Shown piece by piece: positions 5,551 through 53,823 of a DNA stretch of 64,000 nucleotides (position 1 is its first letter; every line of letters starts with the position of its first letter). A model generated the notes under the pieces. It made no database searches. It saw only the letters and a program-made list of their open reading frames with translations, and was not told where the DNA came from. Source of the stretch: a virus (lineage: Duplodnaviria; Caudoviricetes); IMG/VR virus record IMGVR_UViG_2627853630_000004, positions 1 to 64,000 of that record; one strand, 5' to 3'. Both the position numbers and the translations under genes were made by a program.

Positions 5551-5564
5551 ATTTTCTCCAGATG

Positions 5565-5591
5565 AAAAAAAGCCCACATAATAGTGGGCTT
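5565..5591 (-). terminator. intrinsic terminator closing the moron
   Basis: AAGCCCAC-N7-GTGGGCTT hairpin followed by a T7 tract on the minus strand. Confidence 0.65.
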
Positions 5592-28319: not shown

Positions 28320-28419
28320 AAAAACCCGCACTGATGGCGGGTTTCTGATATTCTGCCGCTTGCGAATACAGCTTCGCGAAGCATAGCTGTATTCAATCAG
28401 TGACTGGCTCACTTTGCAA
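28320..28419 (-). promoter_or_regulatory. late promoter pR' and terminator tR'
   Basis: TTGCAA(28419-28414)-N17-TTGAAT(28396-28391) at the end of the Q-like gene, then a hairpin and ACCCGC-N7-GCGGGT plus T-run (28320-28344). Confidence 0.6.
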
Positions 28420-28968
28420 GTAAAATCTTTTGCTATTCGTCTCAAATGCGTCACACATCGGCTGATATAACATTGATTCAGCCATTCCCAGCCACACATC
28501 AATACGGCGCCGGCACGTCATTAGGCTCAATTCTGGATGTGTTGCGTGAAATTCTTCTGCGATTTCACGCATGCTCATTTTCCCCTGATACCGACGCTCA
28601 AGCAGACGCAGTAAGGGGCGATTATCTTTCATTGCTCCAGCTATAACTTTGTCCATCACCAGTCCCTCATCGTCGGTACAGAATACCAGGCTGCTATGCC
28701 TGCTCTGCTGAAGCATGTCGTTTACCCATGATTCGAGCTCTTTTGATGAGCACCCTTTTTTACGCAAGGCTTTAAGGGCTTTGCTCATATCATCTTGGCT
28801 GACAACATATTTACCCAGTAATTTCTTAAACATATCCGTTGCCGTTGGGTTGGTATTTATCGCTGACCAGCGCCCCCACATTTTTAATTTCCCCTGAATC
28901 CAAACACTTTCCAATGTGCGTAAGCGGAGAATCTCTCCACCTTTTCCAACCTCAGATGGATAGATCAT
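28393..28968 (-). CDS. Q-like late antiterminator (DUF1133-like)
   Basis: MIYP..GK.GE.LRLRTLESVWIQGKLKMWGRWS; C-terminal HTH; last gene before pR'. Confidence 0.72.
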   Translation of the reverse strand: MIYPSEVGKGGEILRLRTLESVWIQGKLKMWGRWSAINTNPTATDMFKKLLGKYVVSQDDMSKALKALRKKGCSSKELESWVNDMLQQSRHSSLVFCTDDEGLVMDKVIAGAMKDNRPLLRLLERRYQGKMSMREIAEEFHATHPELSLMTCRRRIDVWLGMAESMLYQPMCDAFETNSKRFYLQSEPVTD

Positions 28969-29249
28969 AGCTTCCCCTCCGCTATCAAAATGTTTAGTGT
29001 TCTCATAACGCCCTCGGCGTGACAAAGGAGTGCCGTTTCTGTCTCTGTGTGCCGCGTTCTGCGGTCTATTTCGTCGTGACAGGAGCTACACGCCCACGCG
29101 CCCTGGATATCGTCGGGCTTAATTCCAGTGCCGCATGTTCCAGCCAGTCGATAATGAGCAAGTACGGTTGTTTCAGGATTGAAATTGCATACGCCTGGTA
29201 TGCGTATCTGACAATCGCGGCCGCGCGCCTCTTTTTTAAAATTGGTCAT
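28965..29249 (-). CDS. DUF1364/YbcO-like putative nuclease
   Basis: ARGRDCQIRIPGVC..NPETTVLAH, ACSSCHD. Confidence 0.8.
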   Translation of the reverse strand: MTNFKKEARGRDCQIRIPGVCNFNPETTVLAHYRLAGTCGTGIKPDDIQGAWACSSCHDEIDRRTRHTETETALLCHAEGVMRTLNILIAEGKL

Positions 29250-29839
29250 GCGGCGTACTCCAGCAGTTGCGCGGCTGCGTTCTCTGCTGCCTGCTGAGTG
29301 GGGAAAGTATGGTAGAGGATGTAATTCCAGAGTACGTTCAGCACCGCTTTATAGAGTTCGCCGAACTTCAGATCATCCATTTTTGAAAACTTAATTGATT
29401 CGGGTTCGTTACGGCGGGTGCCATCGGGCATGTAAAACGTAACGTAGAATCCCGCTTCAATCGTCACCCATGATCTGAACGACTCGAACGATTTCACCGC
29501 CGTGATATTGATTGCTCGTTTCTGTGCAGTATCGCTGAGATATTGATCGGCTAGTTCCTGAATTGTCCCTTCGTGGCCTGCATAGTAAGCAATCCATTTT
29601 ACAAAACCGTTTACAAGGGCTTTATCAGCAGGAGATATGGCACCGCCGTCCGGTTCAAAGTAGTGAAAGCCGAGATTCAGGAGTGAGAAGAATTTACGAT
29701 GAAATGCCGCGTTTCGCGCTTGCTTGAAATCGGCATAAATAACCGCGCCCGTCTTTAGCTTCTTGACGAACTCGTTAGAATCAGGTGTGGCGGGAATTAA
29801 TATTCCACCAGCTGACTTTACAAATGAATGCTGTGCCAT
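29246..29839 (-). CDS. DUF1367-like (NinB-related) protein
   Basis: RNAAFHRKFFSLLNLGF, KSFESFRSW, SIKFSKMD. Confidence 0.78.
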   Translation of the reverse strand: MAQHSFVKSAGGILIPATPDSNEFVKKLKTGAVIYADFKQARNAAFHRKFFSLLNLGFHYFEPDGGAISPADKALVNGFVKWIAYYAGHEGTIQELADQYLSDTAQKRAINITAVKSFESFRSWVTIEAGFYVTFYMPDGTRRNEPESIKFSKMDDLKFGELYKAVLNVLWNYILYHTFPTQQAAENAAAQLLEYAA

Positions 29840-29918
29840 TACCTATCCTCAGTAATGGCGCAGTTGCTTTGTTTGGGTTATCGGGTGTTCAGTCCGATGT
29901 GTTTATTGTACTGTATGT

Positions 29919-30200
29919 TTAGAAAGGTTTGTTAATAATTCTCTGAAATTTATAAAGCTCATTCTCAAAGGTTTCAATCTTACTCTCTTTATCACTTACC
30001 TGTCCCGAGGCCTCATCAGCACAAATGAATGCTGCACTTAATTTATCCTGAGCATACTCACTAAGCGAGCTATTTATCTTATTTTTCAAACCATTAAAAT
30101 TTGAAATATCATTTTTTGCTGATGATTTCGTATTGGATCTGGATATATTTCTTAACAATCTAGCTATTTCATTAAAATCACTTTCGTTTAGTTGATTCAT
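29919..30200 (-). CDS. AT-rich hypothetical protein (moron)
   Basis: AGGAG RBS; 93 aa. Confidence 0.6.
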   Translation of the reverse strand: MNQLNESDFNEIARLLRNISRSNTKSSAKNDISNFNGLKNKINSSLSEYAQDKLSAAFICADEASGQVSDKESKIETFENELYKFQRIINKPF

Positions 30201-30229
30201 CTCTGTTCTCCTTGTGACATGTCACAGAA

Positions 30230-30577
30230 CTATATATCTAATTTTATTTCATGCCACCCGCTTGTATTCCAGCAATCAGAATCACCGCTCATGCAGCATG
30301 ATGCTACTGGCAACGACTCACCGCATTTCCCGCAGCATTGGCGGTTGAGCGACTGAATACGCTGGCGCACTCTGGCATCATCTTGCCGTATCAGCAGTTG
30401 GATATATTCATCCATGTCATAGGGTTCCTTACCCGGACGGCGTAGCACACAATTGCGGCGCAACATATCAAGTTCCTGAGCATCAAGATTCAGTTCCAGC
30501 TTGGTTACGCCAGCCTCCCGCTGGCGCTCACGTTGTGCTCTTTTACGTGCGGCGGCACGCTCTTTAGTGTCTGTCAT
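30230..30577 (-). CDS. hypothetical phage protein with C-terminal Cys cluster
   Basis: AAARKRAQRERQ, RRPGKEPY, CGKCGE...C...GDSDCW; ATGA overlap with the methyltransferase gene. Confidence 0.7.
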   Translation of the reverse strand: MTDTKERAAARKRAQRERQREAGVTKLELNLDAQELDMLRRNCVLRRPGKEPYDMDEYIQLLIRQDDARVRQRIQSLNRQCCGKCGESLPVASCCMSGDSDCWNTSGWHEIKLDI

Positions 30578-32742
30578 GCAGCCACCTGCCATGCGCAGTA
30601 TTCGGGCAAGTTTGCAGCAACTAATGCCCTTGCCTCTGTTGGGCAGACGGCATTGCCGCAACGTGCTACCTGATCTTTCTGTGATATTGGGTTTCCATCT
30701 GGATCGCGATCGATAATGTAATCAGGCGGGAATCCTTGAGCGTTATACAACTCGCGTGGCGATAGCATCCGCATGCAAATATCGATGATGACGTAATCAC
30801 CAACGCGCAGGTATTGACGCCGCGGGGCTGGGAATAGATGGGGGTCATCAGGTAAATCACTGTACGCCTCAAACAGCCGAGCGCAGCACCATGCGTTATA
30901 TCGTTGTTCGTCAGTTAATGGCTGTATTTCGCATTCAACTTCAGTCAGTCCGAATCGATCCCGCGTCGGAATTGTGTGCATCGGTTCAGTGATAGAAACG
31001 CCGTCACGCTCATTGCCGTAGTATTTTGTCAGATACGCCTGAACATGCCCGACATGTTGACCACCAGCGGTGATTGTTGGTACCGGCTCTGTTGATTGCT
31101 GCCCATCTTGGCAGGTTCCACGCAACTTGATGAGGTGTGATGAGCACAAGGAATGATGATCGACCTGAGTTACTGTATGCAGCGGTTCATCCATGCAACA
31201 ACCTGGCCCAGAGTAACCACCGCCGTAATGCTTAATCAGGTTGGCTGCGATAACAGCTTTATGTGATGACGTCGGTACCGTGTCGTATGGCGCGTTAATG
31301 TCACGCGGTTTTCCCGAATACTTGGGGCCACCAGCACCAACCAAAATTGCAGATAATAACTGGCTCTTTCCACCGCCCCCCGCAGTGACAGTTCCTAGCG
31401 GGGTATCTACGGGGTTAGCTGTGCTATTACCGAACTGACGTACAACCACAGGAGCGGCAATACTAAATCCGTGCGCCTGCGTTATCGTCTGTAATGGCTC
31501 CCGCAACGATTGACCTCGGAAACAGTCGTACGCACTGCGATTGCTGGTGTGATTACACTTAACGGCGAATGGCTCTATCAGCAGATGTTCCGCTTTGCTG
31601 GTGACGGTCGTAATGGGCTGATTTACGGAATACGACAGCCGGTCACCACCGAAACCAGTTTGCCCAATCCGCACGATATACGGCTCAGGGTTATTAATCA
31701 CAAACCGATCCAAACCCCGAACGATGCGTTTTAACGTATTGTCTGCCAGCGGCTTTTTCCGGCCTAAAATGGAACGTGTCGGTAGTGGCCAGTCAATGCA
31801 ATCAGCAGCTGTTCGCCACGGTTTTAAATTGCCCTCGGAAAATTCCTTCGATCGTGGATCACCATACTCCGCTGCTGGCCACTCAACTGGCCGCCCGTCG
31901 CATCGTGCAACAACATACAGGCGCTTTCTGATAGTCGGCGCGCCAGACATGTACGCCTTGCGCTCCCTGTGATCAACGTTGTAACCCAAGCCCTTAACCA
32001 ATTTTTTGGCATCAGGGCCGTTAATGTCGATATTCAGGAATTCGCAACACTCAGCCAGCGCCGGATGATTCGCGGGAATGCCAGTGCTCAACATGCCAAT
32101 AAACGCGTTAAATGTTTCACCTCTTTTGGCTGGGTCTGGGTAATAGTTACCCGCCTTTTCAACCAATGGCCCCCATGACCGGAACTCTTCAACGTTCTCC
32201 ATCATCAGCACGCGCGGACGGGTCGCCAGCGCCCAGCGCAGAATCACCCACGCCAAACCGCGTATCTCCTTCTTAACTGGCGTGCCGCCCTTCGCTTTTG
32301 AGAAGTGACGGCAGTCTGGCGAAAACCAGCCGAGCAATACAGGCAGACCACCCGTTGAGACAACCGGATCGACGCTGAAGATGTCTTCGGGGTAATGCAG
32401 CGTACGCGGGTGATTCATTGCGTGCATCGCCATCGCTACAGGATTGTGATTCATTGCGATGTGCGGCTCGAATCCTAACGCTTGTTTGATGCCCTCGCAG
32501 CTCCCGCCGCCACCAGCGAAACCGACAACCACCAGCCCGTTTTCAACATCAGGCCGAGCGATTTCTATCGCTTGGCGCCGCGCCCATTTGTGAGCCGCCT
32601 TTTGAATGTCTGCCGGGTTTTCTCTGCGTAAAAACATTCCGTGCATTTCTGAGAGAAGCGCCTCTCGGCGCTCCGGTGATAATTGATGAACGGGTATCAC
32701 GGATGAGGCGCATTGCTTAACTTCTGTAGGCCAATCACTCAT
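30574..32742 (-). CDS. DNA cytosine-5 methyltransferase (large, repeat-containing)
   Basis: Motif I FAGGGG, IV SPDC, VI ENVEEF, VIII RKR, IX RMLSPREL..AQGFP, X GNAV. Confidence 0.9.
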   Translation of the reverse strand: MSDWPTEVKQCASSVIPVHQLSPERREALLSEMHGMFLRRENPADIQKAAHKWARRQAIEIARPDVENGLVVVGFAGGGGSCEGIKQALGFEPHIAMNHNPVAMAMHAMNHPRTLHYPEDIFSVDPVVSTGGLPVLLGWFSPDCRHFSKAKGGTPVKKEIRGLAWVILRWALATRPRVLMMENVEEFRSWGPLVEKAGNYYPDPAKRGETFNAFIGMLSTGIPANHPALAECCEFLNIDINGPDAKKLVKGLGYNVDHRERKAYMSGAPTIRKRLYVVARCDGRPVEWPAAEYGDPRSKEFSEGNLKPWRTAADCIDWPLPTRSILGRKKPLADNTLKRIVRGLDRFVINNPEPYIVRIGQTGFGGDRLSYSVNQPITTVTSKAEHLLIEPFAVKCNHTSNRSAYDCFRGQSLREPLQTITQAHGFSIAAPVVVRQFGNSTANPVDTPLGTVTAGGGGKSQLLSAILVGAGGPKYSGKPRDINAPYDTVPTSSHKAVIAANLIKHYGGGYSGPGCCMDEPLHTVTQVDHHSLCSSHLIKLRGTCQDGQQSTEPVPTITAGGQHVGHVQAYLTKYYGNERDGVSITEPMHTIPTRDRFGLTEVECEIQPLTDEQRYNAWCCARLFEAYSDLPDDPHLFPAPRRQYLRVGDYVIIDICMRMLSPRELYNAQGFPPDYIIDRDPDGNPISQKDQVARCGNAVCPTEARALVAANLPEYCAWQVAA

Positions 32743-32821
32743 GATCCACCACCTGATTTTTATCAGAGCGAACGACAGTCGCGCCTAGCACGTTTAATTG
32801 AGTGGTTGATAGCGTGGTCAT
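32735..32821 (-). CDS. 28-aa leader-like ORF overlapping the methyltransferase start
   Basis: MTTLSTTQLNVLGATVVRSDKNQVVDHE*, preceded by GAGGCAAGACCAA. Confidence 0.45.
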   Translation of the reverse strand: MTTLSTTQLNVLGATVVRSDKNQVVDHE

Positions 32822-33072
32822 TTGGTCTTGCCTCGTTTTTGGTCGTGATATTCGCGCCAGTAATTTAAGCGCGCTCTAAAATGTTCCCGATACTGCTCCG
32901 CTACCGTGTCCAGCTCTTTTTCAACGTTCCGGCGCAGGGCTTTTCCTGCTATGAGTTGATTTATTAACTGGTTGGCGCGCAGGTCTAGCCATTCCATATC
33001 CCTGAATTCCTGCGGCCACTCACCACGGTTATGAGGCAGTCCGGGCGGCAGGTAATCTGATTGCCCGGACAT
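32818..33072 (-). CDS. hypothetical phage protein
   Basis: SDYLPPGLPHNR.EWP; lies in the pR operon. Confidence 0.65.
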   Translation of the reverse strand: MSGQSDYLPPGLPHNRGEWPQEFRDMEWLDLRANQLINQLIAGKALRRNVEKELDTVAEQYREHFRARLNYWREYHDQKRGKTK

Positions 33073-33075
33073 GGG

Positions 33076-33462
33076 TTATGCCTCTATGGGTTTTATCGTG
33101 TCGAGAAGAAGACGGGCGCGAGTCGGACCACCAGCGCGGGTGCCAGTGTCCTTGTAATAAAACTCGCCAGTGCCAACCACCCACGTAGTCGGGGTTTCAC
33201 GTAATTTAACCGTGCGTTCCCCGCCCACACGGACAACGGTTCCCGTGTGGGTTTTCTTTGTTGTCAGCCGTTTCTTACCTGACGTTTTCGGGAGTGGGGA
33301 AAATTTCGGCGCAACAACTTGCCGCGGCGCGGGAGCTGGCACGTACGGTGAGCGTGTGCGAGCGCGGGCGTTTGCGTTCATAGCCCAAAGAATTGGGCCG
33401 GTGTGGTCGCAGCCGTCATCGGTCATGAATGCGCGTGCGTAAATAACATCAGTTGTAATCAT
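33076..33462 (-). CDS. hypothetical phage protein
   Basis: VKLRETPTTWV...Y.KDTG.R...RLLLDTIKP; start abuts AGGCAAGACC. Confidence 0.68.
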   Translation of the reverse strand: MITTDVIYARAFMTDDGCDHTGPILWAMNANARARTRSPYVPAPAPRQVVAPKFSPLPKTSGKKRLTTKKTHTGTVVRVGGERTVKLRETPTTWVVGTGEFYYKDTGTRAGGPTRARLLLDTIKPIEA

Positions 33463-33508
33463 GGTCTTGCCTCTTTTTTTGGTCGGTTAAGCGCTGGTCA
33501 GGCGCGGT

Positions 33509-34921
33509 TTAAAATTCTTCAATCGGTTGTTTCTTGCTGTATCGCCTGTCTTTCTCCTGCCCTTTCTCTGCCAGCGATCGAGCCTCATTCGTTGGGATAT
33601 TCTTGATATATCCATCAATCATCTGTGCGTACGCTGTTCCGCTCGGCCCCTCACGATTCAGTCGCACAATGAGTTCCATTAGGGTTTTATCCGCCTGCTC
33701 GTTGTAGACAGCGTCACGGTATAGCCCGATCCAAACATCACAATCCTGTTCGATCTGGCCGGTGTCTTTACTGTCTGAGGGCTGTGGCCGTTTGTCCGCG
33801 CGCTCTTCCAGTTTTCGGTTTAACTGCGTCAGCAGCAGCACGATGCAATCCAATTCTTTAGCCAGATTTTTTAAGCCGGTTGTTATCGCGCCGTAACTGA
33901 TGTCGCGGCGTTCCGCTTCCTCGCCTTTCATCAGTGTTAGGTAGTCCACAGCGACTAAACCAACGTGCCCCCGCTGACGTTTAACTTTTCTGCTCTCTGC
34001 TACGATATGGGCAAGTGACACGCCCGGCGTACTGTCGATCATCAGATTTGATTCGGACAGTTCAGCGGCTTTAGCCATTGCCAGCGCCATTTTTGAATCG
34101 TCGTATTCGCCGTTGTAAAACAGGTTTGAACTGATGAGCGCCTCTTGTGCGATCATTCGTTCAATAATCCCCCTGTCAGTCATTTCAAGGCTGAAAACCA
34201 GCGACGGGAGGCGATGATTTAATGCGAAATGCGTAGCGATTTTGTTGTATGTCGCGGTCTTACCCATTTTCGGGCGTGCCCCAACCACGATGAGTGAGCC
34301 ACGCAACGCTTGCTTAGGTGCCATGATTTCATCCAGCCCCTCAATGCCGAGCGTCAAGCCAGCTCCACCCGCAGGATCACTAAATCGGCGCTCAATCTCA
34401 TCAACCCAATCGCCAACGACATCAGTCGCAGGCCGCAACCCTCCCCTACGTCCAGTGCTGGCATGATCGACAACAGCGGTGATCATTTGCTGCACGCTGC
34501 TTAATCGGCTTTCGACTGTAGCGCCGCCGCTGGAGCTGACGATCTCAATGCATGAGTAGAGTTTTTCCAGCGTATAGCGCAGCACTGCTTTTTCACGCAC
34601 GATGCGAGCGTATGCGAGTGTGTTTGCAGCTACTGGCACCCGTGCCATTTCAGCCAGATATGCCATTCCCCCAACGGTCACCAATTCACCGTTTGATTCG
34701 AGTAATTCACTCAGGGTTATCAGGTCGGTCGGCTTTTCAGATCGCGACAGTTCAACCAGACGACGATAAATAATTTGATGTGCGCGCAGATAAAACGACT
34801 CAGCTTTCAGCAGGGACATCACAGCATGGCGGCGCTCATCGTCAGTATTCAGCATCAACCCGCCGATAACGGCCTGCTCTGCTGATGAGCTGTGCGGAAC
34901 AACAGGAATATCATTGGTCAT
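33509..34921 (-). CDS. dnaB: replicative DNA helicase, DnaB family
   Basis: PHS..AEQAVIGG, GARPKMGKT, FSLEM, VDYL, QLNR.LE.RADKRP..SD, GQIEQDCD. Confidence 0.95.
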   Translation of the reverse strand: MTNDIPVVPHSSSAEQAVIGGLMLNTDDERRHAVMSLLKAESFYLRAHQIIYRRLVELSRSEKPTDLITLSELLESNGELVTVGGMAYLAEMARVPVAANTLAYARIVREKAVLRYTLEKLYSCIEIVSSSGGATVESRLSSVQQMITAVVDHASTGRRGGLRPATDVVGDWVDEIERRFSDPAGGAGLTLGIEGLDEIMAPKQALRGSLIVVGARPKMGKTATYNKIATHFALNHRLPSLVFSLEMTDRGIIERMIAQEALISSNLFYNGEYDDSKMALAMAKAAELSESNLMIDSTPGVSLAHIVAESRKVKRQRGHVGLVAVDYLTLMKGEEAERRDISYGAITTGLKNLAKELDCIVLLLTQLNRKLEERADKRPQPSDSKDTGQIEQDCDVWIGLYRDAVYNEQADKTLMELIVRLNREGPSGTAYAQMIDGYIKNIPTNEARSLAEKGQEKDRRYSKKQPIEEF

Positions 34922-35681
34922 TAGCGCGCTCCTCTTTCACGGCGACATAGCAACGCTCAGTAACCAGGTAATCGATGTTTTTGCGTTTCCAGAATCCACC
35001 CCGCCCATTAGATCGGTCTTCCATCATCCAGCGGCAATGCACGGAGATATATTTCAAATAGGCCTGCCAACGCTCAGGAGTGAACTGGAATTTTTTCCAG
35101 AACGCTCGGATCGTTTTTTTTCTCGCGTCAGTCAAAATCTGAACGCGTGGCATGTCTGGAAGGGTTTCGTGGTACACATCCAGAATTTTTTGATAATCAA
35201 TTTTTTCAGCTGGCGGATTATCTGCTGGTGGAGCAGGCTCGCCTGATTCACCAATAACAGGTTCATTGACTGGTTCAGAAGGGTGACTGGTTCTGGTGCC
35301 ATCTGACGCCACAGGGGGTGTGCTTTCTGGTGGTACAGGTGGGTTTTCTGGTGACTCACCTGTGTTTTCTGACACCACAGGGGCTGTGATTTTTGGTGGC
35401 ACAGGGTTATCGAGCGTCAGATAGTAAACGTTCGACGTGTTCCCCTTCCCATTATTCTCACCGAGCCTGTTTTCTTTTGACAGAAAACCCATTTTTATCA
35501 ATGCGGTGATGTGTGCTTTAACGGCACTTTTGCTGCACTCGCACTGATCCGCAACATGCTGATATGACGGCCAGCACTCACCTTTGTCATTCGCGTTATC
35601 GGCCAGCTTAATGAGAACCAGCTTTCGCAGTGGGTTACCGACTTTGCGGCTCATGGCTTTTGCCATTAGGTTCATGCTCAC
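34911..35681 (-). CDS. replication initiator with N-terminal HTH
   Basis: KLVLIKLADNANDKGECWPSYQHVA; Pro-rich repetitive centre (likely ori iterons, ~35310-35405). Confidence 0.85.
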   Translation of the reverse strand: MSMNLMAKAMSRKVGNPLRKLVLIKLADNANDKGECWPSYQHVADQCECSKSAVKAHITALIKMGFLSKENRLGENNGKGNTSNVYYLTLDNPVPPKITAPVVSENTGESPENPPVPPESTPPVASDGTRTSHPSEPVNEPVIGESGEPAPPADNPPAEKIDYQKILDVYHETLPDMPRVQILTDARKKTIRAFWKKFQFTPERWQAYLKYISVHCRWMMEDRSNGRGGFWKRKNIDYLVTERCYVAVKEERANDQ

Positions 35682-35682
35682 G

Positions 35683-35910
35683 CTACACCCCCAGCGATTC
35701 CGCTAACTGACGGCACGCATCCTGATATTCGTCCGGCGATAGATTCATCTCACGCAATTCCGATTTGCGCTGTTCGTATTGCTCCCATACAGAGAGCGCT
35801 TCAGCCCTGCGGCCATCAAAGACAGGTTCAATATCACTGACGCTGGCTGGTTCGCCATTCAGCAAAAAGCCGTTCCTGTACGTGATTCGAATTCGGATCC
35901 TGGTGTGCAT
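35683..35910 (-). CDS. hypothetical phage protein
   Basis: Start reassigned to the ATG at 35910 behind GAGGCAAGACCA. Confidence 0.6.
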   Translation of the reverse strand: MHTRIRIRITYRNGFLLNGEPASVSDIEPVFDGRRAEALSVWEQYEQRKSELREMNLSPDEYQDACRQLAESLGV

Positions 35911-35932
35911 TGGTCTTGCCTCGCTATGCAAC

Positions 35933-36385
35933 TTATGCAACTAACTGCTGAGTAACTGGCAACAGCGCATACATCGCCTCTGTCGCTTTATTTATTCGTT
36001 GTGACATGTCACAGCATCCGAGCAGCACAGCATTCATCGCTGTGGAAAATTCACGGATGGCCACTGCCGTCAGGTAGTTAACAGATCGGTCATTCTGCAA
36101 ACGTGCCCGTCGTTCCCCCGGTAGAGCTGCAAGCATCACCGGAGCCAGCAACTGGACTTTTCTCTGTGCTGCGCGTGAGTCACTACGCAACCAGCGGAAA
36201 ATCTGCTGCCTGTTGTTATTTATCGATTTCCAGTCAGCAACGCCGCGCTGCTCGATTTCATGCAGCCGGATATGTGGATCGCCACCAGCCAGAAAAAATC
36301 GTTTGGTTATCTCGATCGCTACAGTTTCCTGTCCTGCATCAACCGCCCATGATTCGATCTCGTTCTTCAGCTCCTGAATATTCAT
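35933..36385 (-). CDS. CII-equivalent transcription activator, YdaT family
   Basis: W....GQETVAIEIT, NNRQQIFRWL; position after cro; TTGATT-N6-AATCA site just upstream. Confidence 0.78.
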   Translation of the reverse strand: MNIQELKNEIESWAVDAGQETVAIEITKRFFLAGGDPHIRLHEIEQRGVADWKSINNNRQQIFRWLRSDSRAAQRKVQLLAPVMLAALPGERRARLQNDRSVNYLTAVAIREFSTAMNAVLLGCCDMSQRINKATEAMYALLPVTQQLVA

Positions 36386-36403
36386 TGCGTCTCCTGTCGC
36401 AAA

Positions 36404-36421
36404 TTGATTTTTGATAATCAG
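36404..36421. promoter_or_regulatory. YdaT/CII-type binding site (pRE position)
   Basis: TTGATT-TTTGAT-AATCAG between cro and the ydaT-like gene. Confidence 0.7.
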
Positions 36422-36440
36422 ATTTACGCTGATATATCCG

Positions 36441-36635
36441 TCATTGTTTTCGGTACAGTTCCGGGTTGAATTTGAGTTCTCCGTTAGTTCTGATAGCGGC
36501 TTCTGTGGCTCGGCCTTTTGGGATTAGTTTTCCCTCTCGGGTTCGCCACTGATAAATAGCCTCAGTACTCACTTCAAAGAACTGAGCAACCTTCTCAACT
36601 GTTCCGAAATACTCTTCAATTTCGGTTGTAGTCAT
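36441..36635 (-). CDS. cro: Cro-like repressor
   Basis: 64-aa HTH (YFG...KVAQFFEVSTEAIYQW...IPKGRA), divergent from CI. Confidence 0.85.
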   Translation of the reverse strand: MTTTEIEEYFGTVEKVAQFFEVSTEAIYQWRTREGKLIPKGRATEAAIRTNGELKFNPELYRKQ

Positions 36636-36650
36636 TACGCCTCCCGTTAA

Positions 36651-36713
36651 CTAAGTTTGATTAGACATTAACACCTAATCAAACTTAGATCAACGAGTGC
36701 TAAGATAAGTTAG
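36651..36713. promoter_or_regulatory. OR operators and pR
   Basis: Three CTAA-N6-TTAG palindromes (36651-36664, 36675-36688, 36700-36713); minus-strand TTGATC-N17-TAATGT (36693-36665). Confidence 0.78.
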
Positions 36714-36732
36714 TTATTTTTATTTGGTGCGC

Positions 36733-37359
36733 ATGATGGAATCTGTAGGGCAACGAATTAAGCGATTACGAAAAATGACAAAAACGTCTCAAAAGGATTT
36801 GGGGCGCTACTGTGGTGTCTCTGATGTTGCTGTTGGTTATTGGGAAAAAGACATTAACTCACCCAGTGGGGAGCCCGTTTCCAAGCTAGCCAAATTCTTT
36901 AACACCAGCGTTGACTACATTTTGTATGGCACGAAGTTTGAGGGTGAGTTGATCACTAGCGTTCGCAGGGTTCCAGTTCTTTCGTGGGTACAAGCTGGGT
37001 TATTCACTGAATCAACATCGGACCTTATTGATGATTCAACCGAGTGGATTGAAACCGCAGCACCGCTATCAGGGCGAGCATTTGCATTACAGGTTCGTGG
37101 GGATTCAATGACTAACCCTAACGGGCTTCCCTCAATACCTGAAGGGGCGATTGTATTTGTTGATCCAGAGGTGGTGGCAGAAAGCGGGCGGATCGTCGTA
37201 GCGCGACTCAATGGCACATCAGAAGCCACTATTAAAAAACTTGTTATAGATGGCCCAACAAAATTACTCGTTCCCCTAAACCCTCGCTACCCCACACTAA
37301 CGATCAATGGTAATTGCATCATCATTGGCGTAGTTAAAAGCGTTCAGTACACTCTTTAA
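36733..37359 (+). CDS. cI: CI repressor (HTH plus S24 peptidase)
   Basis: HTH N-terminus, VQAG cleavage site, VRGDSM catalytic Ser, TIKKL catalytic Lys. Confidence 0.93.
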   Translation: MMESVGQRIKRLRKMTKTSQKDLGRYCGVSDVAVGYWEKDINSPSGEPVSKLAKFFNTSVDYILYGTKFEGELITSVRRVPVLSWVQAGLFTESTSDLIDDSTEWIETAAPLSGRAFALQVRGDSMTNPNGLPSIPEGAIVFVDPEVVAESGRIVVARLNGTSEATIKKLVIDGPTKLLVPLNPRYPTLTINGNCIIIGVVKSVQYTL

Positions 37360-37390
37360 CCCTCCCTCAGCATAAGCGAAAAACCGATAA

Positions 37391-37441
37391 CTAAGTTTAA
37401 TTCGGTTTTTTGTTGACATAAAATCTAAGTTAAATTAGATT
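37391..37441 (+). promoter_or_regulatory. OL operators and pL
   Basis: CTAAGTTTAATTCG (37391) and CTAAGTTAAATTAG (37425); TTGACA(37413-37418)-N17-TAGATT(37436-37441). Confidence 0.82.
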
Positions 37442-37643
37442 AAATCCATCAACAGCGAACAGGCAGGACGCCCACGAAGTAGCCGCTACCGGCGTATGAA
37501 CAGGTAGATGATTCGCTAAGTAAGGCAAGACCAACCCACGCCGCAGACCACGCTCTATGAGTGGCGACGTGGGAAAACAACCAGGCGCAGTTGCGCTGTT
37601 TGGGTAACACGTTCTGACAGCGGGAAAGACCGCAAATTAATTC

Positions 37644-37719
37644 GGCCCCTTAGCTCAGCGGTTAGAGCTATCCCCTCATAAGGGATTGGTCACTGGTTCA
37701 AATCCAGTAGGGGTCACCA
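37644..37719 (+). tRNA. tRNA with CAT anticodon, Ile2 (lysidine)-type body
   Basis: 76-nt cloverleaf GGCCCCTTAGCTCAG...ATCCC-CTCATAA-GGGAT...GGTTCAAATCC...GGGGTCACCA; acceptor and D arms resemble ileX. Confidence 0.9.
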
Positions 37720-37722
37720 AAT

Positions 37723-37781
37723 TAGCGATCAGGTGATTAACGGGTTTCCCTGCTCGTTACCCGGTTCGACTCCGGGCGCTA
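37723..37781 (+). ncRNA. truncated tRNA-like element
   Basis: T-arm CCCGG-TTCGACT-CCGGG, closing TAGCG/CGCTA, inner stem TAACGGGT/GCTCGTTA; no CCA and no proper D arm. Confidence 0.45.
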
Positions 37782-37884
37782 TTCGAAATCACGTTGCCAT
37801 CGTGATAACTGCGAGAGGTGTGTAGTCATTGGGCGGTGTGGGTTTTTGATCTTTCCCCTATCCGCCAATTTTTTTCGCAGACGT

Positions 37885-38010
37885 AAAAAAGCCCGCCTTG
37901 CGGCAGGCTTAGTTACCTCGGATAACCGACCAAAGTATTTCCGAGAGGTTTGCGGCGCTTACCAGGCGCCGCAAGGCAAGACCAATACCAACTAACGCTG
38001 ATACTGATCA
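37885..38010 (-). ncRNA. predicted trans-acting antisense sRNA (~125 nt)
   Basis: TATAAT at 38022-38017, two hairpins, then GCCTGCC-GCAA-GGCGGGC-T6 terminator (37910-37885); carries the complements of the repeated RBS motifs. Confidence 0.6.
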
Positions 38011-38033
38011 GCCGTGATTATACGAGGAACGCT

Positions 38034-38327
38034 ATGAAAGCGCCAGATATCACAACCACGCTGTACCTCCATCTCAACGCATTTACATCTGAACCGTTAA
38101 TTTGCACATGTGACATGTCACATTTTGGTCATGCGTTAATTTCAACGTGTGAAGTCTCCGTGCCATTTCCTGAAATAACCCCCGAATACCTTGCAGAACG
38201 CAAGATGTCAGCGTTACGGGAACAGCAACAAAAAATTCTCTCTGACGCTCAAATCAAGGCGAATGAACTGGAAGACCAGGTTCAGAAATTGCTGTGCGTT
38301 GAGCGCCAGAACAGCACCATTAAGTGA
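38034..38327 (+). CDS. hypothetical phage protein
   Basis: GAGG RBS, CDMS motif, coiled-coil C-terminus. Confidence 0.65.
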   Translation: MKAPDITTTLYLHLNAFTSEPLICTCDMSHFGHALISTCEVSVPFPEITPEYLAERKMSALREQQQKILSDAQIKANELEDQVQKLLCVERQNSTIK

Positions 38328-38337
38328 GGGTGAAGAC

Positions 38338-38622
38338 GTGGGTGATGTAGGTGATTACTACAGGGACTTAAAGCCGTACTTGAAGGAGCAGCGTCGAAAA
38401 GCACGAGATGGTGCATATGGGCGTATCAAAGCGTTCTTTGTTAGAAATGGTGTTCAGTTGGAAGAAGGAAATAACACACTAATTTTCCGCACACCACAAG
38501 GCACTGTTTGCTACTACCCACCAAGCCAGAGGATGCAGCACAAGCAATTATGGAAAGAATGCAGCCCGACCAGCTGCATGAACTATGTGAAAAAACTAAG
38601 AACTGAGAGGCAAGACCAATGA
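38338..38622 (+). CDS. hypothetical phage protein
   Basis: GTG start with GAGG RBS (MGDVGDYYRDLK); ATGA overlap with the next gene. Confidence 0.6.
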   Translation: MGDVGDYYRDLKPYLKEQRRKARDGAYGRIKAFFVRNGVQLEEGNNTLIFRTPQGTVCYYPPSQRMQHKQLWKECSPTSCMNYVKKLRTERQDQ

Positions 38623-40802
38623 CAACAGCAACATTTACCGCTGCTTTCTTTCCAAAGAAATCAGCTCAAAAAAATGGCGCGATACCGCTAGCAACAGCGA
38701 TCGAAGCAAAAAGCAAAAAACTGGCAGAAATGGCAGCAGTTATGCTGCTGGAAGAAACATTCCCTGGTGCCAGTGATAACTTCTTTAAACCAACCATCAC
38801 CGAGGATTCGATCGGTTCACCCCGTCCAGCCGTTGGAACGTTCGATGAGACATTCCTACAGGAAAATGAGCTGGTAGAGGGCGTCTGGCGGCGCATCGAG
38901 GCACCGACTCAGCCTAACGATCTCGTCGATTTCTCCACCCTCTCTTTGCGTGAAAAAATCGCGGCGTTTGCGTTGTATGCGCAATCTGAAATCACCGAGC
39001 ATGAATTCTCTATGGTGTGTGATTATCTCGATCTGCCGGATTTCGATGGCGATGGGGATACTAACGCAGACACGGACAAACTGATCCGCATACTCAGCGG
39101 TATTGAATTGTTGGAACAGGCTACTGACGAATTGCTACTCAGCGTAGTAAATGCCGTTAACGCTCGGTTCCCATCTATCGCAGATGTTGCGGATCGTGAA
39201 ATTCTGGCCTTTGTTGATACGTTAACATGCGCGCCCGGCGAAAATGACACGCAAGCGACAAAGCCGCTGATCGCTGGATTGGATCGTGAACGCCAGTACA
39301 CGCATACGCATCGAACATTAAACCGAGAAGTCGCCCTGTTCCTGGCTAACGACAACATCACAGATCCGTGGGAAGTAACAGAAGAACAGAAGGTTGCGGG
39401 TGATCAGGTGATGAAAAGCGGTGGTGACACGTATTCACGATGGTCAACCGAGTTGAGTATGGTTGAGGGCGCGTTAAAAATCCCCCGCCCCATAGTTTTC
39501 ATCTTGATAAATGAGGCCAAGAAACGCCCTGAATTATTGCTAGATGCAAACGCGCGTCAGCGGTTCGTTGTTGATTTTCTGGCTGAGCACACACCATCAG
39601 AAATCAAAGTTGAAAGCATGGGCAGCGGACGATTCTCTATTGATGGCCTGATGGGTGAAACCGCATCAAATCAGGGAGAAAAAACGGAAGTGGTCAGCAC
39701 GCCTGAGGCTGAAACAAAACAGACTGAAGCCGTTAACCCGCCAGCAGAAACCATTACGCAGCAGGCCAGCACCGAAGCTGGTGAGCAGATCATTAGCGAC
39801 GGCACAGTGCAGCAGGCAAAAGAAGCGCTCGATCAGCTGGGGTACGGCGTTTACGCGACAGAAACGGACGCACCAGCACCAGCACCAGCACCAGCAGACG
39901 ATTTTCAGCAAAGAGCTGAAGCCATTGAAGCCGAGATCGCCAAAAAACCAGACGCGGCACGCGGCAATCTATCTATTTGGCAGGGTGTCCAGAGAACCAA
40001 CCCTGCGCACACAAGGCGGAAAGAAACATGGAAGTGGGTTAACGGAAAACAAGAGCTATTGCGCGCAGTCACTAGCGTCAACCCTACGTACCAAATAATG
40101 AGAGCCACAGAAGTATTTGGACCGTTCGGGTTAGGTTGGGGGGTGGAAGTTACAGAGGAGCGATTCGATCCCGGATTACCACTAATGGAGCCAGTCTTTG
40201 ATAGCTCAGGGAGAGAGATAAACCGAAAACCCATGCGTGATGGTGATGGATCACTTGTCAGGGCGCTAAACCACACAATGCAAATACGATTATGGTACGT
40301 GCTGGATGGTGTGCGCGGAGAGTTTCCCGCTTTCGGGCATACGAAATATCTCTATGCAAAGAATAGTGGTGGCATGGTGTGTGACGATGAAGTCGGTAAA
40401 AAAAGCCTGACAGATGCCATCACAAAAGGGCTGTCAGCGCTTGGCTTTAGCGCCGATATCTACATGGGCATGTTTGATGATGACGAATATAAGAATAAAA
40501 ACGAAGCGGAATTCGGCATCAAAAACGCAAGTGACAAAGCCGAAGACGTGGTGCGTTTTCGCTCTGAGCTGGATGAGAAATTCACACGGAACGCGGCAAC
40601 GATGGAGACGACAGTCAGCGTCAATGAACTCAATAAGGTGTTTGGAGTTCTCGTACGTGAGATCGAAACACATCGTAAAGATGCAGAGGCAAAAGGTGAT
40701 ACAGAATACGCAAAATATCTATCTAGTCGTCTGCGTCGCCTTACTGAAATAAAAAGCGAGCGTGAAAAAGCACTCAAGGCCACTGAAGGGGAAAAAGCAT
40801 GA
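38619..40802 (+). CDS. recombination protein: RecE-like N-terminus fused to a Rad52/Sak-like annealing domain
   Basis: N-terminal KKSA.K.G...IEAKSKK; C-terminal TEVFGP.G.GWG, KKSLTDA..K.LS.LGFSADIYMG.FDD. Confidence 0.65.
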   Translation: MTTATFTAAFFPKKSAQKNGAIPLATAIEAKSKKLAEMAAVMLLEETFPGASDNFFKPTITEDSIGSPRPAVGTFDETFLQENELVEGVWRRIEAPTQPNDLVDFSTLSLREKIAAFALYAQSEITEHEFSMVCDYLDLPDFDGDGDTNADTDKLIRILSGIELLEQATDELLLSVVNAVNARFPSIADVADREILAFVDTLTCAPGENDTQATKPLIAGLDRERQYTHTHRTLNREVALFLANDNITDPWEVTEEQKVAGDQVMKSGGDTYSRWSTELSMVEGALKIPRPIVFILINEAKKRPELLLDANARQRFVVDFLAEHTPSEIKVESMGSGRFSIDGLMGETASNQGEKTEVVSTPEAETKQTEAVNPPAETITQQASTEAGEQIISDGTVQQAKEALDQLGYGVYATETDAPAPAPAPADDFQQRAEAIEAEIAKKPDAARGNLSIWQGVQRTNPAHTRRKETWKWVNGKQELLRAVTSVNPTYQIMRATEVFGPFGLGWGVEVTEERFDPGLPLMEPVFDSSGREINRKPMRDGDGSLVRALNHTMQIRLWYVLDGVRGEFPAFGHTKYLYAKNSGGMVCDDEVGKKSLTDAITKGLSALGFSADIYMGMFDDDEYKNKNEAEFGIKNASDKAEDVVRFRSELDEKFTRNAATMETTVSVNELNKVFGVLVREIETHRKDAEAKGDTEYAKYLSSRLRRLTEIKSEREKALKATEGEKA
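39870..39896 (+). repeat. (GCACCA)4.5 microsatellite encoding an Ala-Pro linker
   Basis: GCACCAGCACCAGCACCAGCACCAGCA, in frame. Confidence 0.85.
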
Positions 40803-43040: not shown

Positions 43041-43103
43041 TTGCATATTCACCAAACACGCAAAAATCATATTAGGAAGAATATTAGGAAAGGCGGTTTT
43101 AGG

Positions 43104-43229
43104 TACAAAAAAACCGCCTTTCGGCGGTCTACGACATTGCACATAAGTGCTTGTTTTAATTCGTATTAAATCAATGGTGCCCGGGGCGGGACTTGAACCC
43201 GCACAGCGCGAACGCCGAGGGATTTTAAA
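43104..43229 (-). repeat. att site copy 2 (tRNA-Leu 3' half at 43175-43229): junction of prophage 1 and the P2-like prophage
   Basis: Direct repeat of 208-333; includes the ACCGCC-GAAA-GGCGGT-T7 terminator. Confidence 0.92.
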
Positions 43230-53594: not shown

Positions 53595-53823
53595 CGCGCG
53601 CTGAGGGGGATAAGAGGGGTATGCTGGTTCATATGCTGCTGCATCCTCATCACGTCGCTATTGCGCTGTTTCGATCTCAGTCAATCACTGCATCATTCGG
53701 CTAATATGTTGCTCAGAATCGCATTCAGGCGCTTTTACGCAGACGTAAAAAAACCGGGCAATCTTACGGCTGTCCGGTCTGCTGTTTGATGGCTAGTTGA
53801 GCGGTTTTGAATGACTCTCGCGG

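Follow-up and report, generated by a model that had tools for sequence, protein, structure and literature searches.

Our analysis concerns a 64,000-nucleotide (nt) stretch of DNA, here called the window, from an IMG/VR provirus record (IMGVR_UViG_2627853630_000004) closely akin to Pectobacterium phage ZF40, and points to a two-part RNA switch that would make synthesis of the antiterminator Q dependent on derepression of the early-left promoter pL. The two parts are the leader of the minus-strand DUF1367–YbcO–Q operon, which folds into a hairpin around the first start codon (the lock), and a short element in the plus-strand pL leader RNA (the key), encoded ~8 kb away. That these two RNAs pair in a functional manner is highly probable from the way in which their sequences have changed together in related prophages. 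It is also probable, at a lower level of confidence, that the pL leader RNA displaces the 5' arm of the hairpin by strand invasion, frees the AUG and thereby switches on DUF1367, YbcO and Q. Read along the transcript, the lock region comprises the following elements.

29905-29910, minus strand: -10 hexamer of the leader promoter, TACAAT (sequence read)
29880-29898, minus strand: hairpin 1, the 5'-terminal element of the leader RNA, with a stem AUCGG/CCGAU and a 9-nt loop ACUGAACAC that contains a YUNR-like CUGA (sequence and RNAalifold)
29864-29879, minus strand: A/C-rich linker or 'toehold' AACCCAAACAAAGCAA between the two hairpins, variable among relatives and covarying with the pL element (sequence read and relatives)
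29831-29863, minus strand: hairpin 2 (the lock), with its 5' arm at 29863-29852, the Shine–Dalgarno (SD) sequence GAGGA at 29850-29846 in the loop and the 3' arm at 29842-29831, which includes the AUG at 29839-29837
29857-29878, minus strand: the 22 nt complementary to the pL RNA, i.e. toehold plus 7 nt of the 5' arm, matching 37584-37605 on the same DNA strand at 20/22 positions

Hairpin 2, which a previous sequence-only reading of the window had drawn with the SD sequence in the loop and the AUG in the stem, was recovered from the sequence as well as by RNAfold. On the minus strand it runs CUGCGCCAUUAC-UGAGGAUAG-GUAAUGGCACAG, with 11 of 12 pairs formed and one C.A mismatch. Folding of 29905-29800 (minus strand) yields this hairpin within a minimum free energy (MFE) structure of -28 kcal/mol (z = -3.27; 0 of 200 shuffled sequences as stable), and hairpin 2 by itself amounts to -15.9 kcal/mol. 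The toehold had been described as unstructured, which is only approximately true: in the 106-nt MFE structure the linker is mostly unpaired, but five of its nucleotides pair with UUUGU 3' of hairpin 2.

Relatives were collected by a family-wide genome search with the leader DNA, in which 7 of 401 genomes matched and 18-kb stretches were taken, and by a profile-based scan of IMG/VR, which returned 564 relatives of which the best 80 were kept; a single DUF1367 protein as query found 5 viral loci and 1 genome locus only, and an alignment query reached further. The resulting 86 DUF1367-encoding loci have 65-71 distinct leaders, depending on the stretch compared. Among 65 distinct leaders the AUG is always paired, with 2-3 of its nucleotides involved in 64, and the 60-nt region of hairpin 2 has a mean folding energy of -19.6 kcal/mol. 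The 5' arm in relatives (CTGYGCY...) pairs with the G of the ATG plus GCR-CA, the SD sequence again lying in the loop, and where the protein starts with M-T-Q the arms read TGCGTCA/TGACGCA. At pair 83/115, opposite the third base of codon 2, CG occurs in 44 leaders, UA in 12, UG in 4, CA in 4 (the group that includes the window) and UU in 1, and these C-G/U-A/U.G exchanges follow the synonymous third base of codon 2, GCG versus GCA. Such compensatory changes argue that the lock is kept by selection as a structure and not as a sequence. As an intrinsic terminator hairpin 2 was rejected, since the terminator scan made no call there and its tail CAUUCAUUUG is coding and U-poor; it may be a weak attenuator.

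Between the -10 hexamer and the toehold lies hairpin 1, which the earlier reading had overlooked and which is conserved. In the RNAalifold alignment of the 65 leaders, double-sided changes are found at all five of its pairs (in 23, 23, 27, 10 and 1 sequences), and the loop contains TGAACA in 64/65. A 'terminator' called on the plus strand at 29879-29899 is merely the complement of hairpin 1, its T-rich tail being the -10 region, which is not T-rich in other groups, and was discarded. The -10 hexamer at 29910-29905 had already been named, as had the coupling of the DUF1367–DUF1364–Q genes by ATGA overlaps, and both assignments stand (sequence; Pfam and PHROGs). The aligned hexamer is TATAAT in 40 of the 65 leaders, matches at 5/6 positions in 19 and at 4/6 in 6, with a spacing to hairpin 1 of 6 nt in 59. 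For prophage Gifsy-1, the predicted +1 of the leader lies ~1,606 nt upstream of the Q ATG. This position fits a transcription start site (TSS) '1,600 bases upstream of antQ' that was mapped in a lysogen for operon SL2582-SL2579, as given, with reference to Kroger et al., in an excerpt of PMC4825925, and the leader promoter thus has support from outside this study.

The counterpart of the lock is found in the pL region, with the following elements.

37413-37441, plus strand: pL-type promoter TTGACA-17-TAGATT, transcript start ~37448 (promoter scan, 10/12)
37584-37605, plus strand: the key GGCGCAGUUGCGCUGUUUGGGU in the pL leader RNA, a 20/22 match to the leader with group-specific counterparts at the same place in 17 representatives
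37611-37633, plus strand: conserved GUUCUGACA, followed by a hairpin GCGG-GAAAGA-CCGC, directly 3' of the key (relatives)

An operator-like motif, CTAAGTTNNATTAG, has four matches in the window versus 0.17 expected; two lie at pR and the other two at pL (37391-37404 and 37425-37438, the latter covering the spacer and the -10 region), and the scan of the window found no match to it near the leader promoter (29905-29940). The proposal that the key is carried by a CI-repressed early RNA, in distinction to the lock mRNA, is in line with this distribution. The GUUC 3' of the key is complementary to the GAAC in the loop of hairpin 1, and of 40 distinct pairs, 35 have a GTTC no more than 30 nt 3' of the partner, versus 66 of 800 control windows. 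The key itself is unchanged in ZF40. In the hairpin that follows it, ZF40 and the related locus L007 carry a C-to-U change that preserves the stem, as G.U, in the plus-strand RNA only. No terminator-like site was called on the plus strand between 37605 and 38100, the hairpin at 37620-37633 being followed by AAAUUAAUUC.

The match between 29857-29878 and 37584-37605 (leader ACCCAAACAAAGCAACTGCGCC, key ACCCAAACAGCGCAACTGCGCC) is present as first noticed and does not extend past 22 nt. Because the two copies have the same orientation in the DNA but belong to units transcribed divergently, the leader and pL RNAs are complementary to each other. Taken alone, the match is not beyond chance: direct matches of at least 20/22 occurred in 8 of 30 Markov-simulated windows, with a mean of 0.27 per window. 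It becomes significant only because the two sites covary in relatives. Cofolding, which had been suggested as a check, does pair the key with leader nt 21-42 (RNAcofold; free-energy difference, ddG, ~ -19.5 kcal/mol), and this removes the lower 7 base pairs (bp) of hairpin 2.

For the comparison of relatives, the leader (-62 to -8) was aligned against all upstream DNA on both strands. A same-strand copy of linker plus 5' arm was found 3.5-10 kb upstream in 45 of the 65 distinct leaders. In 78 loci the best local alignment has a mean score of 26.4 on the same strand versus 20.7 on the opposite strand, with scores of at least 26 in 37/78 and 3/78, respectively, and RNAduplex means over 46 pairs are -42.7 for cognate, -32.8 for non-cognate, -28.6 for wrong-strand and -26.1 for shuffled partners. 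Since RNAduplex ranks were blurred by near-duplicate groups, they were replaced by a comparison of one representative per group (17, including SEN34 and Gifsy-1). In this comparison, which corresponds to the suggested examination of the 22-mers in related prophages, the own partner takes first place in 12 cases and second place in 5, with a mean score of 29.1 against 15.3 for the others; the five second-rank cases lose to neighbouring groups. In all 17 the key closely follows a TTGAC-type promoter directed away from the Q operon and precedes GUUCYG plus a hairpin. Overall, at least 12 sequence-distinct key/lock groups exist, including those of ZF40, SEN34 and Gifsy-1/2. Examples are L021 (leader ACCCAAATTACTGCGCT, key ACCCAAACTACTGCGCT), L050 (TTCTGAACAACCGCTGC on either side), L065 (leader TAAACTCATC-AACAGCTGTGCC, key TAAACTCATCAAACAGCTGCGCC) and a further group with 'TTCTGAACAA'. 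The carriers comprise an isolated phage, SEN34, as well as the prophages Gifsy-1, where the system lies upstream of antQ, and Gifsy-2.

The details of this covariation say more about the kind of interaction. In 42 of the 45 distinct pairs the complementary stretch reaches 5-9 nt into the 5' arm, and the remaining three appear to have spurious partners. It stops 14-22 nt short of the AUG and before the SD sequence, such that neither SD sequence nor start codon is covered. Together with the compensatory changes in the hairpin and the covarying groups, this overlap supports the original idea of a key in the pL leader and a lock at the Q operon. Mismatches were counted with a filter on context, which required GTTC[TC]G or GTTCAA within 30 nt as well as a score of at least 21 and left out L062, L068, L089 and some low-scoring partners, all spurious-looking; the 20 of 52 distinct alignments that pass it contain 21 G.U-compatible mismatches, 4 incompatible transitions and 10 transversions. 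Insertions and deletions between key and lock are tolerated (L024, L025), and in L069 a 60-nt stem-closed module of the 37455-37516 type described below sits inside the key, with both key halves still matching the leader. A DNA-binding site would not survive such an insertion, an RNA duplex with a side domain would. Thus, this insertion, the smaller indels and the lean towards wobble pairs suggest that the constraint acts at the RNA level. Both elements also behave as bounded modules, since in a contig of a relative homology to the window ends exactly at 29912, just upstream of the -10 hexamer, and at 37630, the end of the pL hairpin.

In the model that we favour, the Q operon would be transcribed from its own sigma-70 promoter, free of operator-like sites, with hairpin 1 (loop CUGAACA) as a protective or recognition element at the start of the mRNA. 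Hairpin 2 would pair the AUG and the first codons, so that the mRNA is made but poorly translated, and YbcO and Q would stay off too, because their starts are ATGA-coupled to the locked DUF1367. Release of the repressor from pL would allow synthesis of the first 40-200 nt of its transcript, and with them of the key. The key would then pair with the linker and 5-9 nt of the 5' arm, perhaps nucleated by the GUUC 3' of the key on the GAAC of hairpin 1, and displacement of the 5' arm would free the start codon for translation of DUF1367, YbcO and Q, with late transcription to follow. We favour activation because the complementary stretch stops upstream of the SD sequence and includes the masking 5' arm. 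The layout of the circuit agrees with this, the key being placed behind the repressor-controlled promoter and Q being coupled in translation to the locked gene. Both structures, the complementarity and its covariation are established by the comparisons above; the model further supposes that the two RNAs do meet, perhaps via a kissing step.

Several observations weigh against this model or parts of it. The sign of the regulation, i.e. activation, is deduced solely from the architecture. The window's trigger extends over no more than the lower 7 bp of hairpin 2, and in cofolding the remaining CAUUAC/GUAAUG, which holds the AUG, can still form. The two mismatches in the window and in ZF40 are A.C and A.G, i.e. 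not wobble pairs, and the L007 key carries one further, uncompensated change that leaves 19/22. GAAC and GUUC are both nearly invariant, and covariation can therefore not probe the kissing step. For 20 of the 65 distinct leaders a partner was not found within the flanks searched, some of which are short. The bias towards wobble-compatible changes falls to ~31 versus 12 when ten genuine-looking alignments skipped by the filter are included, and these counts are not phylogenetically independent. The -35 region of the leader promoter in the window is poor (2/6), and the promoter scan made no call there. The one RNA run analysed, which contains 5% of the window's words, speaks neither for nor against the model: its contigs, derived from a relative (90-96% alike), are confined to the repressor/cro region (35875-37362) and a short piece at 29200-29263, and neither the Q-operon leader nor the pL leader has any coverage.

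The same pairing could in principle have the opposite effect, with the pL RNA delaying or lowering expression of the Q operon, by making it a substrate of RNase III or via Rho termination, and Q rising once Cro lowers pL activity. Covariation and complementarity would suit any functional duplex, one of 17-25 bp could well be an RNase III target, and most known phage antisense RNAs are repressors. Yet the duplex stops before the SD sequence and the AUG and covers the masking arm instead, a repressor would more simply target the ribosome-binding site (RBS) itself, and a default-off hairpin maintained by compensatory change would be left without anything to open it; negative control seems unlikely to us. 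Alternatively, regulation could run in the reverse direction: the Q-leader RNA, made from an operator-free promoter in lysogens too, would be antisense to the 5' end of the pL transcript and damp its leaky expression or direct its processing or termination. Hairpin 1 has a YUNR-type loop, as do many antisense recognition loops, and the pL RNA has its pairing site right at the beginning, followed immediately by GUUCYG and the hairpin. The lysogen-mapped TSS of the Gifsy-1 antQ operon (PMC4825925, in the excerpt mentioned above) also speaks for it. This direction leaves the inclusion of the 5' arm (42/45) and the conservation of hairpin 2 unexplained, and in the lineages read the pL RNA site overlaps no RBS, which makes it quite improbable as an explanation, but it could coexist with activation of the Q operon by the pL RNA.

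That no RNA function is involved at all, i.e. that we are dealing with a chance match or with DNA repeats, be it sites of one protein or duplication relics under gene conversion, is largely refuted and appears extremely improbable. It is true that a single 20/22 direct match is expected in about a quarter of such windows and that ZF40 contributes no information on covariation, because both of its sites are identical to those of the window. Against it stand at least 12 distinct groups with specificity for their own partner and a far lower opposite-strand control, a position relative to promoters that is fixed in the 17 representatives, and the acceptance of indels and of a 60-nt insertion in the key, which a protein site would not tolerate. 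Gene conversion of 15-25-nt patches with unrelated flanks and 5-9 kb apart would also be unlikely.

The genes and further RNA elements around this putative switch are as follows.

28393-28968, minus strand: Q-like antiterminator gene with its ATG at 28968 (Pfam DUF1133 and Phage_antitermQ; phrog_753, E 1.2e-58)
28965-29249, minus strand: YbcO-family gene (Pfam PF07102, E 2.6e-42)
29246-29839, minus strand: DUF1367 (NinB/Orf-like), gene 1 of the operon (Pfam PF07105, E 1.8e-77; phrog_319)
36724-37359, plus strand: CI-type repressor gene (Pfam: S24 peptidase and helix-turn-helix)
37455-37516, plus strand: structured module outside the pairing region, with a closing stem GCGAA/UUCGC, a core AGGCAGGACGCCCACGAAGUAGCC, and an inner covarying hairpin with a GGCAUAYGAA loop (relatives)
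37644-37719, plus strand: tRNA-Met (CAU), 10 nt past the pL leader hairpin (Rfam 68 bits; ARAGORN)

On the plus strand the order is repressor gene, pL-type promoter, a 195-nt leader, tRNA-Met and early-left genes (exonuclease and a Gam-like protein; PHROGs), and on the minus strand it is cro, a CII-like gene, replication genes, a methylase and then DUF1367, YbcO and Q. The DUF1367 stop and the YbcO start overlap as ATGA at 29249-29246, as do the YbcO stop and the Q start at 28968-28965 (sequence read). A strong intrinsic terminator (28320-28346, minus strand), 47 nt past the Q stop, fits a short pR'-type transcript and a Q-dependent late promoter overlapping the end of Q. In the RNA run, word depth is 241 for the contig of the repressor gene (36749-37362) and 7-8 for those of cro and cII, which is what a lysogen would show. 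The prophage is bracketed by a 132-nt direct repeat, 98% identical, at 202-333 and 43098-43229 (42.9 kb apart), which is flanked in turn by a 58-nt repeat with 83% identity; these are probably att-site or flanking duplications.

The module at 37455-37516, so far unannotated, is widespread: it is present in 47 phage records, including SfV, SfII, SfIV, ST64B, mEp237, mEp460, YeP1, phiNP and SEN34, and HK022 is not among these 47 records matching 37440-37525. Its stems covary between loci, it recurs at L103:3400-3470 as well as in L069 and others, and no second copy of the AGGCAGGACGCCCACGAAGUAGCC core was found within the window. From its occurrence it behaves as an insertable cassette. This conserved module of the pL leader could itself deal with termination, and a put-like role would be a guess. 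Between this module and the key, a long stem CCCACGCCGC...GCGACGUGGG (37535-37573, plus strand) differs by compensatory substitutions between the window, ZF40 and L007, the last of which has it in a perfect 10-bp form. RNase P cleavage at the tRNA-Met would free the leader as a ~195-nt RNA. This tRNA is not found at the corresponding place in ZF40, where there is a protein gene instead; the stretch at 37720-37800, which is common to the window and ZF40, contains the T-arm-like GGTTCGACTCCGGG, which may be a tRNA remnant. In Rfam, only the tRNA reached the gathering score in the window, and neither lock nor key element was matched on 29000-38700 with E up to 5.

Two further repeated motifs were seen. 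TTTTTCGCAGACGTAAAAAAGCC occurs three times (37871-37893, 53733-53755 and 5552-5574; 78-100% identity) and also in ZF40, the copy at 37871 adjoining a terminator-like hairpin (37910-37889) oriented for the minus strand. RAGGCAAGACCAA(TG), with up to two mismatches, occurs nine times in the window versus 1.6 expected, with sites at 32822, 33461 and 35910 on the minus strand and at 37522, 37973, 38607, 41404 and 41786 on the plus strand. Eight of the nine copies lie on the coding strand of early genes in both arms; those at 35910 and 38607 consist of SD sequence, spacer and ATG, and two copies in the pL leader are without an ATG. This motif may be a shared translation-control site.

If our model holds, it explains how lambdoid phages without N tie their late genes to the loss of repression, the link being an RNA that acts in trans on translation and not a protein that acts on RNA polymerase. 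It is an evenly balanced proposition that a whole family of N-less lambdoid prophages of Enterobacterales (including Gifsy-1/2, SEN34, mEp237-like phages and ZF40) gate Q by natural toehold-type switches with YUNR-loop recognition, and that a dozen or more largely orthogonal pairs constitute a second, RNA-level layer of 'immunity' that decides on cross-activation among co-resident prophages. S. Typhimurium LT2 harbours both Gifsy-1 and Gifsy-2, and the two prophages agree exactly in their Q-operon leaders and in their pL keys (L104:41619-41635 and L105:3722-3738; L104:36583-36650 and NC_010393:11690-11790). Thus, on the model each could unlock the Q operon of the other, i.e. identical keys would cross-activate and different groups should not. 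For Salmonella, a missing step would be added to the regulation of antQ in Gifsy-1/2; in an excerpt of PMC4825925, the rise of antQ mRNA after antirepressor expression is ascribed to transcription. For RNA engineering, these would be natural and evolution-tested orthogonal pairs of activator RNA and switch in which mismatches, bulges and inserted domains are tolerated.

How does such a switch compare with known systems? In its layout it resembles the synthetic toehold switches reportedly described by Green et al. in 2014: the loop holds the RBS and the stem the start codon, there is a single-stranded 5' stretch (here a linker predicted to be mostly unpaired), the trigger is complementary to this stretch plus the 5' arm, and many orthogonal key/lock pairs exist. 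Unlike these, the present system is natural, has an extra 5' hairpin with a conserved loop, forms imperfect duplexes (with bulges, G.U pairs and insertions) and uses the 5' leader of an operon mRNA as its putative trigger, with activation deduced from its architecture. DsrA, RprA and ArcZ acting on rpoS and GlmZ acting on glmS are Hfq-dependent chromosomal small RNAs (sRNAs) with a terminator and U-tail that activate by an anti-antisense mechanism. Here, too, an RNA in trans is proposed to free a translation start by pairing with the upstream arm of the leader hairpin that inhibits it; in contrast to the DsrA–rpoS type, no terminator-like site was called 3' of the key, and key and lock co-diversify within one mobile element.

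A second comparison is with the lambda protein N, which targets RNA polymerase at nut RNA and does so in cis, on those same transcripts. As with N/nut, a product of the pL operon would be needed before Q is made, and late genes would wait for early-left transcription; unlike N/nut, the link would be from RNA to RNA and would affect how an operon with a promoter of its own is translated. The first open reading frames of pL that were scanned (37950-38327 and 38191-38622) belong to no N-like family, since Pfam gave no match and PHROGs gave only phrog_2479, of unknown function, for 37950-38327 and none for 38191-38622, and it is plausible that the pL RNA stands in for N, as the sequence-only reading had suggested. 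Lambda aQ and OOP, P22 sar, P1 c4 and P4 CI are repressing phage antisense RNAs, of which P1 c4 and P4 CI act in trans via short, repeated matches. With these our system shares short complementarities between phage RNAs and, on the model, a role in developmental decisions; they block an RBS or cause termination, whereas the stretch described here avoids the SD sequence and the AUG and targets the masking arm. Lambda aQ and P22 antisense RNAs appear in the excerpted part of a 2025 review of phage sRNAs (PMC12197685), and the pairing described here was not found in the open-access literature searched, the same excerpt included.

Another natural case is IsrK of Gifsy-1, a terminated sRNA whose target, downstream of antQ, is the read-through isoform of IsrK itself and which works via an antirepressor (excerpt of PMC4825925). 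With IsrK and orf45–anrP, as far as that excerpt goes, a prophage RNA opens in trans the RBS of a translationally inactive mRNA and ultimately raises Q (AntQ), an effect that is proposed for our system as well. The earlier appeal to IsrK as a precedent is therefore fair with respect to mechanism but concerns a different locus, since here the pL leader carries the key, and the antQ-type operon is locked at its first start codon. Gifsy-1 in fact possesses both IsrK and the pL key/Q-operon lock. Overall, the mechanistic class, i.e. a trans-acting RNA that frees a masked start site, is already known from DsrA–rpoS, GlmZ–glmS, IsrK–orf45 and the engineered toehold switches; what sets the present case apart is the proposed action of a pL leader on the first start codon of a Q operon, the extra recognition hairpin, and the many specificities that have co-diversified within a mobile element.

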